Assembly (NCBI GenBank): GCA_050250375.1
Contig: JBFWOS010000002.1
Location: 205,547-269,546 of the forward strand
Source of the DNA: Candidatus Omnitrophota bacterium
GTDB taxonomy: Bacteria; Omnitrophota; Gorgyraeia; Zapsychrales; Zapsychraceae
DNA: 64,000 nt
Reading direction: 5' to 3'
Below are positions 50,507-56,861 of the stretch, in pieces. The translations under genes and the position numbers were made by a program. Position 1 is the first letter of the stretch; every line of letters starts with the position of its first letter. The notes beneath the pieces were generated by a model. The model ran no database searches. It had not been told where the DNA came from and saw only the letters and a program-made list of their open reading frames with translations.

Positions 50507-51925
50507 GTGCCGGATATGATGCCTTCAAATATATACAACTTCTGCCGCAAATATTTCCAAATGTTTGGCAGCCTTTTTTTGTCCCTTTTTTTACTTCTGG
50601 TCATGTGTACGCACGTTTTTGCCGCCATAAACTTACGCGTTTCTCCGGTTGACGGGGGGAACAGCCTGCGTTTCGGGCGGGTTGATTTGCCGTCCACCAC
50701 CAATAAAGAAGTGCGTATCCGAGTCACGTCATCCGAAGAAACCCAGTATCAGGTCTTTCAAAGAATCCTTGAACCGTTTCACAATGAACGCGGCGAGACC
50801 CTGGATTTTGATGCCATTGTCGTGTCGTCTTTATCCGGATCGAACAGTTCCGGGACCATTGAACTGCAGAACGTGGAACAGCTGAGTTACGCCGAACAGC
50901 TGGTATACACGTCGAGCAACAACGGGATCAGTGATTCCTTTGTCCTGGTCTACCAGGCCAATCCCGACAAAATCAATACCGCCGGTGATTTTTCCGGCCA
51001 GATCATTTATACGGTCCGCCCGATCGGCGGCGGCGGATCGCAGGAGGAAGTCATCTTAAACGCCTTTCTTGAGATCTCCTCCGAACTGACCGTTCAGACG
51101 GAAACCTCAACCGGGGCAGACCTGATCAGGCTGCATTCGACGGGACAAACCACCAAAGAAGATTATTTCAAACTGAAATTTGAGGGAAACCGCGGGAAAA
51201 AACTGAGCGTCTACCAAGAGGTTGTGGAATTTCCGGCCAATGAAATCAATCAAACGCTGGATACGGACACGCTGGAGTTGTCATCGGTCGGCGGGGATAA
51301 CGGTCAGTTGTATTTAACGGAAAGTTTACCACTCAGCCGTCAGCGGACGCTGGTCTATTCATCCGAGGCTGCCGACGATGAGATCTGGGTCAATTACCGT
51401 TTGAACGAAAGAAAGAAAGCGCCCCAGGGCGCGGGCCGTTTTACCGGAAGGGTCAGTTACACCGTCGAATCGGACGTTTACACGCAGACGTTCCCGGTTG
51501 ATCTTGAAGTTGAAATCGAACCGGTGTTTGAACTATTCGCGGAATACCCGGCCGGCGGGATGAGTTTTAAAGGGTTATTGCCGAATTCGGAACCGCAGTA
51601 CAAAGAAGTGGTCGTCACGGTTAATTCCAATACCGGAAAACCGTACTGGGTCAGCCAGAATATCACGGCCACGTTGATGAATGAAAAGGGCGAAAAGATT
51701 GATGATGATTATTTTACGGTCAAGCAGGAGATTATGGGGGACGGTACCGGAAAAGTAGAGAACGCGGATTTTTCTTCTCTGACGGAAGGCGAAACGGCCC
51801 TGTATTATTCGGACCGTTACGGCTCGCCGGTCAAGTTCAAGGTTGTTTACCGGCTGAGGCCGTACAAAGGGATGCAGGCGGGGGATTATAAGACAGCGGT
51901 GGTTTACTCCTTGGGAGAAATTTGA
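50507..51925 (+). CDS. secreted hypothetical protein (472 aa), internally repeated beta-rich domains
   Basis: Signal peptide FLSLFLLLVMCTHVFA; two ~200-aa repeats with similar sequence pattern; no known domain. Confidence 0.5.
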   Translation: MPDMMPSNIYNFCRKYFQMFGSLFLSLFLLLVMCTHVFAAINLRVSPVDGGNSLRFGRVDLPSTTNKEVRIRVTSSEETQYQVFQRILEPFHNERGETLDFDAIVVSSLSGSNSSGTIELQNVEQLSYAEQLVYTSSNNGISDSFVLVYQANPDKINTAGDFSGQIIYTVRPIGGGGSQEEVILNAFLEISSELTVQTETSTGADLIRLHSTGQTTKEDYFKLKFEGNRGKKLSVYQEVVEFPANEINQTLDTDTLELSSVGGDNGQLYLTESLPLSRQRTLVYSSEAADDEIWVNYRLNERKKAPQGAGRFTGRVSYTVESDVYTQTFPVDLEVEIEPVFELFAEYPAGGMSFKGLLPNSEPQYKEVVVTVNSNTGKPYWVSQNITATLMNEKGEKIDDDYFTVKQEIMGDGTGKVENADFSSLTEGETALYYSDRYGSPVKFKVVYRLRPYKGMQAGDYKTAVVYSLGEI

Positions 51926-52044
51926 CCAACAGAACAAAAATAAAAGGAGGTGCCAAGAATAACAAATCGTTCTTAATCCATTTTTCTTGCTGAGCATCAC
52001 GCGAGTTCGACCATTATTAAACTATAAAAAAAGAGAGGGATACC

Positions 52045-56600: not shown

Positions 56601-56861
56601 GACGAAAACAACAACGGAAAATACGAAGACGGGGAAAAGACCGTGGCCAGGGCGCGCCTCAAGCTGGACGGACGCGAAGTGGCCGAATCCGATTTTGAAG
56701 GGGTTTATCATTTCTACGACGTCAAACCGGGCGAACATTCCCTCGTGATTGACATCAATTCACTGCCGATGGAATACCTGCCGGTGATCAAGATCAAAAA
56801 TAATATCGACATCCAGGAAGGGACAACCTTCACGTTCCATATTCCGTTAAAGAGAAAATAG
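53658..56861 (+). CDS. large secreted/outer-membrane-associated protein: N-terminal TPR, CpaC/secretin-N-like 'pilus formation' domain, beta-rich core, two C-terminal SdrD-B-like domains
   Basis: Signal peptide; TPR-like helices. EIEFGKSVILHGRQVQQFLVFDPDMLIAQRMDNDSVLITVQQRGSTLFHLWDGQGRWTFNVKV resembles the pilus-formation N-terminal domain of CpaC/RcpA. TITGTVYKDLNRNSKQDADEPGLEGIEIQL and GIFGVFFVDENNNGKYEDGEK SdrD-B-like. Confidence 0.55.
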   Translation: MSVMKRRNKSVIWFLIFNLFSAPCAYGVVDPSYQNFMAEARAAFDNNDYVKALFYIQSAQQADRSSLEPFELSEQIPPLTRHYKSLNFFFNLATKYYYKGDYQSARFYYEKAYAVDPSVPGLQEMADHADRVILGMEPPLFTPREPVFQDIETDPVVAGRLSQEETKQGRRYAVPHNQEVEDIIAKYQGQSPEHKKSVQAVRTPDQEDKIHVLSTTDQTPQQYRKTFIPVAAGRKMPVTQIPRAMEKDTVAKETEYSAYQRKKAVILSKQEERLASTNKETIAAQEMIELDAELWSQQPGTVLEIEFGKSVILHGRQVQQFLVFDPDMLIAQRMDNDSVLITVQQRGSTLFHLWDGQGRWTFNVKGVLPEIQLTKAQMNEDHLEKHVRPFRVSYANNWNSFYLGQSIPELERRNLSFTQWVGVYGETPHGFLDASGNFFKFDESTENTGRTVGLSNANLGPFEDFSIRGWDASKRFSNLSLPGRSFRGILFDSYTLDRNVQFTYLKGQDRANFRQISEGTVEVRKSYIEGGRITLFPDQENKYSINYARGHGEERPKTLKDKVFSVEAVNKFGAVDTHFEVAWDEQDFGELLLTKYEQDDLVFRVNVRDLNPGFKTITSRPSGAGEVGGNIVFEYSPEEYSLSSNLDIYRDRDLANPEKPNSVNYDFGTVFGMPLTDTLSWNNSFFYSNTPQIVSPHESLRFNTTLTKSFEIFNQKTITAFLGGSIQRSRYDRSSSAEYDRMGLSLGVRFPIVKNLNFFSSYDYSWVDVLESGEMSQPNVMNTGLSYYQSFGSKLSGRLSTTYRNEEDTDADFSFLSGTDTLRHNIGFSYRPSPEVEIFMDGSIRNVWRENPEREAYNDADIRVGMRTSWETIFRWDPTATITGTVYKDLNRNSKQDADEPGLEGIEIQLGRKTVKTNYRGRYSSKVRAQEVKVGVNFDSVPKGYSLLSYLMKDIHIENGRTYTIDFGFITRSGIFGVFFVDENNNGKYEDGEKTVARARLKLDGREVAESDFEGVYHFYDVKPGEHSLVIDINSLPMEYLPVIKIKNNIDIQEGTTFTFHIPLKRK

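Follow-up and report, generated by a model that had tools for sequence, protein, structure and literature searches.

Genes and conservation of the cassette

A stretch of 64,000 nucleotides (nt) from a Candidatus Omnitrophota contig (JBFWOS010000002.1), termed here the window and numbered from its first letter, harbors a cassette of five genes for predicted secreted proteins that are designated A to E. Genes A, B, C and D lie consecutively on the plus strand and are followed by the small convergent gene E, the leader of which includes an aptamer of the cyclic di-GMP (c-di-GMP) riboswitch family c-di-GMP-I. An earlier, sequence-only reading of the window had described four successive plus-strand genes with signal peptides at positions 50507-56861 and had suggested a novel surface fiber or secretion apparatus. 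A check of open reading frames (ORFs) placed A, B, C and D on the plus strand at the coordinates that had been assigned to them, and each product, as read from the sequence, begins with a hydrophobic segment resembling a signal peptide followed by an AxA-type site. The list of four genes was upheld in this respect, but the unit proved to be larger than 50507-56861: gene E (56864-57130, minus strand) and the riboswitch (57237-57364, minus strand) also belong to it. The third repeat of A, the apparently missing last strands of the putative subunits and the hairpin behind gene B had been overlooked as well. The features of the cassette are as follows.

50435..50462, plus strand: promoter-like site TTGACA-16-TAGAAT upstream of gene A (consensus scan, 11/12; putative, a pattern match only)
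50507..51925, plus strand: gene A, 472 aa, secreted, three repeats; proposed tip or adhesin subunit
52045..52671, plus strand: gene B, 208 aa, secreted; proposed major polymerizing subunit
52686..52713, plus strand: stem-loop between B and C, 12 bp (8 GC) with a T-rich tail (terminator scan)
52724..53521, plus strand: gene C, 265 aa, two Ig-like domains; proposed PapD-like chaperone
53658..56861, plus strand: gene D, 1067 aa, predicted outer-membrane protein; proposed usher
56864..57130, minus strand: gene E, 88 aa, secreted, convergent on D; proposed assembly regulator or cap
57173..57194, minus strand: terminator-like hairpin and U-run between the aptamer and the ribosome binding site and start of E (terminator scan and sequence reading)
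57237..57364, minus strand: aptamer of the c-di-GMP-I riboswitch family, within the E leader (Rfam RF01051 and covariance model R1)

Two of the start codons probably lie downstream of the positions listed. For A, the GTG at 50507 is questionable as a start, and translation probably begins at one of the ATG codons at 50516, 50519 or 50561, which are a better fit to the homologs. The start of D is probably the ATG at 53667, because the identical NCBI protein is 1064 aa in length.

The order A-B-C-D, then E in convergent orientation, was found in essentially all loci with sufficiently long flanks, ~50 Omnitrophota loci in total. Synteny was established by calling ORFs in all loci (designated by L numbers) followed by searches with hidden Markov models of the protein families. 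A scan of species-representative genomes yielded 61 loci, nearly all labeled Omnitrophota, which include complete chromosomes and one single-cell genome. Other labels were confined to a few contigs of metagenome-assembled genomes ("uncultured Planctomycetales/Planctomycetia," one Lysobacterales and one Methanosarcinales) and probably reflect loose labels or mis-binning. The homologs obtained in homolog searches were all from Candidatus Omnitrophota. Because the gene order recurs in ~50 independent Omnitrophota loci, the A-B-C-D arrangement is not due to chance. The genes that flank the cassette vary from locus to locus, and the window holds a single copy. Loci L040, L043, L044, L051, L062 and L068 possess two to three B paralogs, and additional B-C (subunit-chaperone) pairs are located downstream of D in L059, L061 and L072. 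The B paralogs in L044 are positioned upstream of A.

Predicted folds of proteins C and D

Protein C was modeled by AlphaFold2 from 50 sequences as two β-sandwich domains with a predicted local distance difference test (pLDDT) score of 92.8, in agreement with its earlier description as a two-domain Ig-like protein. A flexible loop at residues 128-137, with low model confidence at approximately residues 131-140, precedes a strand that bears the near-invariant residue R143. Comparison with PapD-like chaperones, which the sequence-only reading had proposed, revealed a PapD-type fold of two Ig-like domains arranged as a boomerang: Foldseek searches of the PDB matched C with a probability of 1.0 to CfaA, CsuC, Caf1M, FimC, FaeE, DraB and PapD over ~230-250 columns that span both domains, and these matches cover chaperones of all three chaperone-usher classes. 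The match to CfaA had an E-value of 7e-11 and a template modeling score (TM-score) of 0.65 on the target, and TM-scores to CsuC were 0.55-0.59. The best E-value, 2e-12, was with the WxLIP protein of Enterococcus faecium at TM-scores of 0.45-0.47. At the sequence level, the fimbrial chaperone EcpB was the top match in the PDB (E-value 0.32 for C alone and 0.012 for the family profile), and comparison by hhalign with eight chaperones of Escherichia coli K-12 gave a probability of 82% (E-value 1e-5) over the whole first domain, with cross-controls at 0.4-13%. No significant match to C was obtained in Pfam or NCBIfam; fn3_5 and WxLIP_PGBD were detected below threshold, the latter in the first domain with 22.2 bits vs. 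a cut-off of 27.3. The sequence of C lacks a transmembrane helix and includes a signal peptide, as expected of a soluble periplasmic protein.

The proline of the D1 strand is the sole residue that is invariant across the chaperone superfamily; classical chaperones use a pair of basic residues in domain 1 to anchor the carboxylate of the subunit, and archaic and alternative chaperones do so with Arg89 together with a Tyr and an Arg of domain 2 (PMC4654587). In C, Pro-92 (conserved at ≥90%) aligns with "TPP" of FimC and "TP" of EcpB in an alignment of low identity. Residue 28 is Lys or Arg in 42 of 50 sequences, with S-R28-I aligning with T-R8-V of FimC, and residue 143 is Arg or Lys in 49 of 50, with T-R143-L-G-S-L-F-F-V aligning with the G1 strand A-R-I-G-T-I-L-V-V of EcpB. 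Judged from alignments and the model, C thus appears to mix the superfamily proline and a classical-style basic pair with a best overall fold match to the alternative chaperones.

The likeness to WxLIP bears on both the mechanism and the identity of C. WxLIP consists of two Ig-like domains and a C-terminal helix, and a hairpin that is disordered is predicted to become a strand inserted in parallel that completes the β-sandwich of the WxL partner (PMC10599100). As the chaperones and WxLIP, the closest structural relatives of C, both donate a strand, the same binding mechanism is indicated for C. The cassette might instead be a diderm counterpart of the WxL/WxLIP surface complex, with C not a transient chaperone but a permanent partner by which A or B is completed and stabilized in the periplasm or at the cell surface, D only exporting or anchoring the complex, and no polymer formed. 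The top-ranking E-values of C with WxLIP, the sub-threshold WxLIP_PGBD match, which also is faint in the homologs, and the strand insertion by which WxLIP too operates favor this view. Nevertheless, we consider it unlikely: C is without the C-terminal transmembrane helix that is the defining third part of WxLIP, the WxL domain is unmatched in A and B, the TM-scores of C are higher with chaperones of chaperone-usher systems (0.65 vs. 0.47), the neighboring gene specifies the usher-like barrel described below, and both the B paralogs and the hairpin behind B are in keeping with a polymer subunit that is produced in surplus.

Protein D has a modular architecture, in which the following segments were delineated.

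53748-54056, plus strand (residues 31-133): TPR-like helices (AlphaFold2 model), followed by a disordered linker of low confidence
54543-54758, plus strand (residues 301-367): pil_N β domain (Pfam and AlphaFold2), followed by a short helix
54828-56270, plus strand (residues 391-871): long β-strands, predicted ~24±2 (~26 in the model, some of them possibly insertion)
56292-56858, plus strand (residues 879-1066): two β-sandwiches resembling SdrD_B/CarboxypepD_reg (Pfam and AlphaFold2)

Pfam matches in D comprise TPR_2 at residues 89-118 (30.7 bits), T2SS-T3SS_pil_N (pil_N) at residues 301-361 (23.1 bits vs. a gathering score of 23) and two copies of SdrD_B in the C-terminal region. The TPR, the N-terminal segment akin to the pilus domain of CpaC/RcpA secretins and the two C-terminal SdrD-B domains that had been claimed for D were therefore all recovered. 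When 10 members of the D family were scanned, SdrD_B was found in every one and pil_N in eight. The best E-value for pil_N among them was 1.2e-8, and its borderline match in D is therefore considered real. The secretin domain (PF00263) was absent from all 10 members, which agrees with the claim that the core is not secretin-like; D was rejected as a secretin on this ground. An exhaustive representative search identified >130 full-length relatives of D at 50% clustering. The conserved unit of the family starts at pil_N, and the TPR region is variable.

The model of D was constructed from 10 sequences because the search with the D profile gave no further full-length relatives. Mean pLDDT was 70, with values mostly of 75-90 in the core, which is predicted to form a large β-barrel. 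The nine best Foldseek matches in the PDB were all to FimD, with E-values of 9e-18 to 2e-14 over ~780-870 columns, and TM-scores to isolated translocation pores of PapC and FimD were 0.42-0.46. The best non-usher matches, which included the TIE protein of Bacillus anthracis, the MOMP porin, TonB-dependent transporters such as OprC, and MtrB, had E-values of at least 4e-10. An usher is composed of an N-terminal domain (NTD), pore, plug and two C-terminal domains, CTD1 and CTD2 (PMC3960871); the order of N-terminal domain, barrel and two C-terminal β-sandwiches in the D model mirrors this arrangement. D has no hydrophobic helix beyond the signal peptide. Alternation of hydrophobicity along the strands gave a mean face difference of 1.85 compared to 3.1 for strands of the sandwich domains and is not informative on transmembrane strands. 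Residues 445-526 (54990-55235; GLSNANLGPFEDFSIRGWDASKRFSNLSLPGRSFRG...) are the most conserved stretch of the family and have the lowest confidence in the barrel region of the model. This segment is a candidate plug or gate, or a candidate site of partner binding. The proposal of a surface fiber or secretion apparatus is supported in that the best structural matches of the large β-barrel core of D are the FimD and PapC ushers, and C has a chaperone fold rather than an enzymatic one. The accompanying statement that the subunit/chaperone/usher logic matches none of the known systems is correct at the sequence level, at which no usher, PapD or fimbrial model of Pfam or NCBIfam was matched, but does not hold at the level of the fold.

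Two further interpretations of D were weighed. In the first, D is a generic large-barrel uptake transporter, either TonB-dependent-like or porin-like, that is served by A, B and C as surface-exposed or periplasmic binding proteins, and its usher likeness is due to convergent barrel geometry. TonB-dependent transporters and porins do occur among the fold matches of D (E-values 1e-9 to 1e-8), and CarboxypepD_reg domains are found in SusC-type transporters. However, those matches are ~8 orders of magnitude weaker than that to FimD, no Pfam match to a TonB-dependent plug or receptor was obtained, the CarboxypepD_reg-like domains of D are C-terminal and not N-terminal, and the partner gene C specifies a chaperone fold. 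This interpretation is very improbable, and assignment of D as a TonB-dependent transporter was dismissed on domain order and fold ranking.

In the second, D is an exopolysaccharide exporter or scaffold that combines TPR and porin regions in the manner of PgaA, BcsC and PelB, and A, B and C are Ig-like carbohydrate-binding accessories. The N-terminal TPR and C-terminal CarboxypepD_reg-like domains of D, the TPR membrane proteins that flank the cassette in the window, and a variant locus (L010) in which a C-like protein adjoins a TPR protein with a Wza-type Poly_export domain are consistent with this scheme. Moreover, c-di-GMP commonly controls exopolysaccharide systems. Against this, genes for a glycosyltransferase, polymerase or flippase are missing from the conserved cassette and its surroundings are not constant among loci, the TPR is a variable and dispensable part of the D family, ushers and not polysaccharide porins lead the fold search with D, and both the chaperone-like fold of C and the pilin-like C-termini of A and B would go unexplained. 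An exopolysaccharide system is quite improbable on this evidence.

Termini of the putative subunits, the hairpin behind gene B, and gene E with its predicted riboswitch

Protein A had been characterized as a two-repeat protein. Instead, hhalign comparisons revealed three homologous repeats of ~145 aa each (E-values 2e-17, 6e-16 and 2e-8), at the following positions.

~50624-51082, plus strand: A repeat 1 (hhalign)
51083-51523, plus strand: A repeat 2 (hhalign)
51524-51922, plus strand: A repeat 3 (hhalign)

Each repeat ends in a strand of the pattern AG-x-[YF]-x-G-x-h-x-Y. Repeats 1 and 2 run on into an extra strand, EVILNAFLEIS and TFPVDLEVEIEP, respectively; repeat 3 ends directly after the G-x-Y strand, as does protein B. 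In each of 50 A homologs, the Gly of the C-terminal motif stands precisely at position -14 from the C-terminus. No meaningful match to A was obtained in Pfam, NCBIfam or in sequence and profile searches of the PDB. From these patterns, A would be of the tip type, with repeats 1 and 2 as complete domains and repeat 3 as an incomplete one.

Protein B terminates in the strand GTYSGTLTVTATFD (52627-52668), which is followed by the stop codon. In an alignment of 64 homologs the C-terminus conforms to G-x-Y-x-G-T-L-T-I-T-A-T-h-x and then stop, with the first Gly, the Tyr and the second Gly conserved in 62, 63 and 62 sequences, respectively, and the motif Gly stands at position -14 from the C-terminus in 47 of the 64. 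A Gly at -14 is present in 14 of 14 pilins of E. coli K-12 (fim, yad, sfm, elf and yeh operons) and, among 532 unrelated ORFs taken from these loci, in only 6.8%. The position of this Gly and the strand pattern thus fit A and B as subunits whose Ig-like domain misses its last strand. At the other end, the conserved strand QVNFFIDAEIP (52117-52149) directly follows the signal peptide of B; the mature N-terminus reads F-x-[VI]-[ST]-A-x-[IV]-P, and 52 of the 64 homologs have the Pro. B and E share a conserved h-x-h-x-h-x-h-P strand that lies three to four residues past the signal peptide cleavage site. B was noted previously to be rich in Gly and Asp, which applies moderately (19.7% for the two residues combined). 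Neither Pfam and NCBIfam nor sequence and profile searches of the PDB gave a meaningful match to B, and searches of Pfam at E≤10 with eight B homologs returned only noise, including DUF4402 with an E-value of 2.1 in one member. Pilin models in Pfam matched neither A nor B. An initial hhalign match of B to pilins at 69% was discarded, as it was caused by the aligned signal peptides. A type V pilus of the Bacteroidota kind also was rejected because B, by inspection of its sequence, carries an AxA-type signal peptidase I site and no lipobox. B would be a polymerizing subunit.

The intergenic spacer between B and C harbors a hairpin with a ΔG of ≤-15 kcal/mol in 30 of 55 loci (median -17.1). The spacers between A and B and between C and D are of similar length and possess such a hairpin in 3 of 50 (median -5.1) and 2 of 51 loci (median -7.5), respectively. 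The sequences of the B-C hairpins vary between loci, and T-runs follow many of them. Conservation of position without conservation of sequence points to a partial terminator or a stabilizing 3′ end. The hairpin is proposed to act as one or the other on the subunit mRNA and thereby to raise the amount of B over that of C and D, as would suit a major structural subunit. A comparable stem-loop is located downstream of papA, and in E. coli K-12 the small RNA FimR2 is annotated directly 3′ of fimA.

Gene E was found in this position next to D in ~50 loci and is conserved, with 57 homologs. The product comprises a signal peptide, the motif [FY]-x-[IV]-S-V-T-I-P in which Pro is present in 57 of 57 sequences, a variable linker and a conserved, hairpin-like C-terminal segment. 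The mature N-terminus, DTVTYFISVTIP, equates to the N-terminal strand motif of B and is at an equal distance from the cleavage site. With ~60 mature residues, E is too short for a full Ig domain. Codon-position mismatch rates were 0.60/0.49/0.71 for E and 0.55/0.48/0.70 for B; as the rates match, E is considered to be translated. The stop codons of D and E are separated by 2 nt in the window (56861/56864), and elsewhere they abut (10414/10415 in L003) or overlap (L051, L053, L062 and L070). No terminator was found between D and E. Given the abutting stops and the lack of a terminator, transcription of either gene should continue antisense into its neighbor, possibly as an added regulatory layer.

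Upstream of E, a search with Rfam RF01051 produced a match on the minus strand at 57242-57304 with 31.4 bits and an E-value of 0.0035, below the gathering score of 35. RF01051 matched at the same place in related loci with 57-68 bits in seven of nine. A covariance model, R1, was built from these hits in related loci. Of 60 sources, 53 gave an R1 match on the minus strand immediately in front of E, and the window is among them (57237-57364, 46.1 bits). The window aptamer has a 34-nt insertion past the first hairpin, which accounts for its score below the Rfam threshold. Membership of the riboswitch family is firm for this type of locus, and the function of the window copy is uncertain. The leader of E is organized in the order aptamer, hairpin plus U-run (57194-57173), ribosome binding site and ATG, which has the form of a standard transcription-terminating expression platform as judged by sequence features. 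A weaker R1 match (32.3 bits) was located at 2309-2427 on the plus strand of L035, just upstream of gene A, which suggests that the structural operon itself may be under c-di-GMP control in some lineages. Two proteins with GAF and HD_5 (HD-GYP-type) domains are candidate c-di-GMP phosphodiesterases in the window (14814-16019 and 41006-42472, plus strand), and a gene for a GGDEF-EAL protein adjoins the cassette in L005.

Other genes in the neighborhood of the cassette, and one distant relative of it, were recorded. A HigB-like toxin/HTH antitoxin pair lies just past the riboswitch leader (57711-58283, plus strand). Four paralogs arranged as two tandem pairs flank the cassette on the plus strand (43485-45182 and 45179-47146; 59507-61747 and 61744-63690); they specify large proteins with similar N-termini, which have a hydrophobic start and F-x-F-D-D-Y, and TPR arrays are present at the C-terminus of the two that were scanned. 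In L007, too, a comparable pair of TPR proteins lies beside the cassette. More distally, the window includes a 2827-aa ORF (22229-30712, plus strand) with SpvB, TcdB_toxin_midN, FG-GAP, RHS-repeat and fn3 matches, which is a Tc-toxin/Rhs-type giant protein, and two histidine kinases with a 7TM sensor region, HisKA_7TM (12120-14321, plus strand; 16097-17743, minus strand). The G+C content is 0.34 at 10001-12000 and 0.37 at 16001-18000 vs. a window average of ~0.46. The distant variant (L010 1-5038 and L011 1-2140) specifies a 293-aa C-like protein (25% identity), neighbors of 230 and 345 aa that end in a strand of the G-K-Y-x-G type and, in place of the D architecture, a large protein that combines TPR with a Wza-type Poly_export domain at the C-terminus.

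Proposed assembly pathway and comparison with known systems

Overall, we hold with moderate confidence that the cassette probably is a sequence-divergent system of the chaperone-usher type that builds a surface fiber or a related polymer on the outer membrane. The analysis documents the predicted folds of C and D, the conserved gene order, the signatures at the termini, the hairpin and the riboswitch; strand complementation and exchange, polymer formation and the roles of A, B and E are inferred. Following Sec export, A and B would fold as β-sandwiches without a last strand. A strand of C (approximately residues 137-150, behind the flexible loop) would be inserted into these subunits, and the basic residues K/R28 and R143 would hold the C-terminal carboxylate of A or B. 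The C-subunit complexes would be handed to D, a barrel with periplasmic domains on both sides, namely TPR and pil_N at one end and two β-sandwiches at the other. At D the strand of the chaperone would be swapped for that of the next subunit, and the chain threaded outward. A would be situated at the tip with its two complete repeats and one incomplete repeat, and B would form the shaft, with surplus B provided via the hairpin after its gene. E would present a B-like N-terminal strand without an acceptor domain, and its control by the c-di-GMP-I riboswitch would tie assembly to c-di-GMP. Each of the alternatives outlined above fails to account for at least one of three features, namely the fold of D with its usher-led ranking, the chaperone-type fold of C and the pilin-like termini.

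Several points weigh against the chaperone-usher interpretation. The fiber is inferred, and the system is known here from genes and predicted folds. PapD_N and PapD_C of Pfam were unmatched by C at E≤1, and the position in C that corresponds to Arg89 is Gly, such that the anchor of archaic and alternative chaperones is absent. Among D and the 10 family members no match to an usher model in Pfam or NCBIfam was found, and a 91-sequence alignment of D compared with six E. coli ushers yielded an hhalign probability of 0.5%. The whole-chain TM-scores of D are 0.31-0.36 from a model with a mean pLDDT of 70 built on 10 sequences; low values of this kind are to be expected when the protein is flexible and multi-domain and the model is moderate. 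The number of barrel strands in that model is approximate and the plug is a candidate. The subunit folds of A, B and E are argued from their sequences: mature B gave an hhalign probability of 3% with E. coli pilins, and B compared with the A repeats gave 1.5-7%, by which homology is not demonstrable. When a position-specific scoring matrix (PSSM) of the N-terminal strands of B and E was applied to A, 21 of 50 sequences had their best match on the extra last strands of repeats 1 or 2, and 12 had it on the strand that opens repeat 3. This mixed placement implies that the B/E strand pattern is generic, and the N-terminal strand of B might therefore be its own A strand and not a donor.

A more far-reaching version of the chaperone-usher interpretation is that the cassette represents a fourth chaperone-usher pathway, restricted to Omnitrophota and without sequence relationship to the three known pathways, that is gated by c-di-GMP through E as a donor-strand-only cap, possibly supplemented by antisense transcription into D. 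In this scheme E would fill the groove of the last subunit at the usher and offer none in return, so that polymerization ends or is blocked; the cap role is suggested by the presence in E of a strand but of no room for an acceptor domain. We regard this extended version as doubtful, with only a modest chance of being correct.

The mechanical principle and the folds are already known. New are the lack of sequence membership, the different periplasmic modules of the usher-like protein, the mixed hallmarks of the chaperone-like protein, the three-repeat tip protein and the riboswitch-controlled companion gene. Among the papers searched, none names both Omnitrophota and chaperone-usher systems. 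The attachment repertoire described for the phylum so far consists of type IVa pili, Tad pili and giant ORFs (PMC10066038), and the phylum-level Omnitrophota studies consulted, including the latter, do not mention ushers or fimbriae. Omnitrophota are uncultured, mostly ultra-small bacteria that are thought to attach to or prey on other cells. If the chaperone-usher interpretation is correct, the cassette would furnish a third class of surface fiber across this phylum, and the principle would extend beyond the documented Proteobacteria, Cyanobacteria and Deinococcus-Thermus (PMC4654587). An usher with unusual periplasmic modules and a chaperone of mixed hallmarks would be useful for tracing the evolution of donor-strand machines, and the likeness in fold between C and WxLIP of Gram-positive bacteria raises the possibility that monoderm and diderm envelopes had a strand donor as a shared ancestor. 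A regulatory handle that can be tested directly is provided by the tight link to a c-di-GMP riboswitch.

In common with the classical chaperone-usher systems Fim and Pap, the cassette has clustered genes for putative subunits, a chaperone of two Ig-like domains and an usher. FimD is the best fold match of D, in which the barrel is followed by two β-sandwiches; the subunits bear a Gly 14 residues from the C-terminus; the basic pair in domain 1 of C is aligned with or near Arg8 and Lys112; and a stem-loop succeeds the gene for the presumed major subunit. FimR2 is annotated 3′ of fimA in E. coli K-12. The N-terminal extension of pilins, 10-20 residues with alternating hydrophobics, is the donor strand in those systems (PMC3960871). 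In contrast, the cassette has no sequence membership in the Usher, PapD_N/C and Fimbrial models; the N-terminal module of D comprises TPR and a CpaC-type pil_N in lieu of the usher NTD, and its C-terminal domains are of the SdrD_B/CarboxypepD_reg type. A consists of three related repeats rather than a lectin and a pilin domain, the subunits are without the penultimate Tyr, an extra small gene is under riboswitch control, and the host phylum is outside the known range.

The archaic (sigma; Csu and CupE) and alternative (CFA/I and Ecp) systems resemble the cassette in the top TM-scores of C (0.65 with CfaA and 0.55-0.59 with CsuC), in EcpB as the only sequence match of C in the PDB, with which the G1 motif aligns, and in minimal sequence similarity to the classical family. 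Chaperone-usher pathways have little sequence homology among them (PMC4654587). The systems differ in the Arg89 anchor, which is replaced by Gly in C, and no match to SCPU or archaic pilin models of Pfam was found among eight B homologs. The archaic class is the most widespread of the chaperone-usher classes and is reported from Proteobacteria, Cyanobacteria and Deinococcus-Thermus (PMC4654587), phyla that exclude Omnitrophota.

WxLIP (DUF916-DUF3324) shares with C the two Ig-like domains, the best Foldseek E-values and the sub-threshold WxLIP_PGBD match. However, WxLIP is held by a C-terminal transmembrane helix on a monoderm wall, whereas C lacks the helix and its gene lies beside that for an outer-membrane barrel, and the cassette has no partner with a WxL domain. 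The CpaC/RcpA secretins of Tad pili have T2SS-T3SS_pil_N in common with D, but D is devoid of the secretin domain and its core was modeled as a single-chain barrel and not a multimer. Finally, compared to GEMM-I riboswitches upstream of pilus and adhesin genes, that of the cassette would govern a small gene convergent on the usher-like gene and not the main structural operon, and the window copy differs in its 34-nt insertion and score below the Rfam threshold. The cassette riboswitch nevertheless matches the GEMM-I examples in a canonical aptamer that is above the gathering score in related loci, a terminator platform and a downstream gene for a secreted protein.

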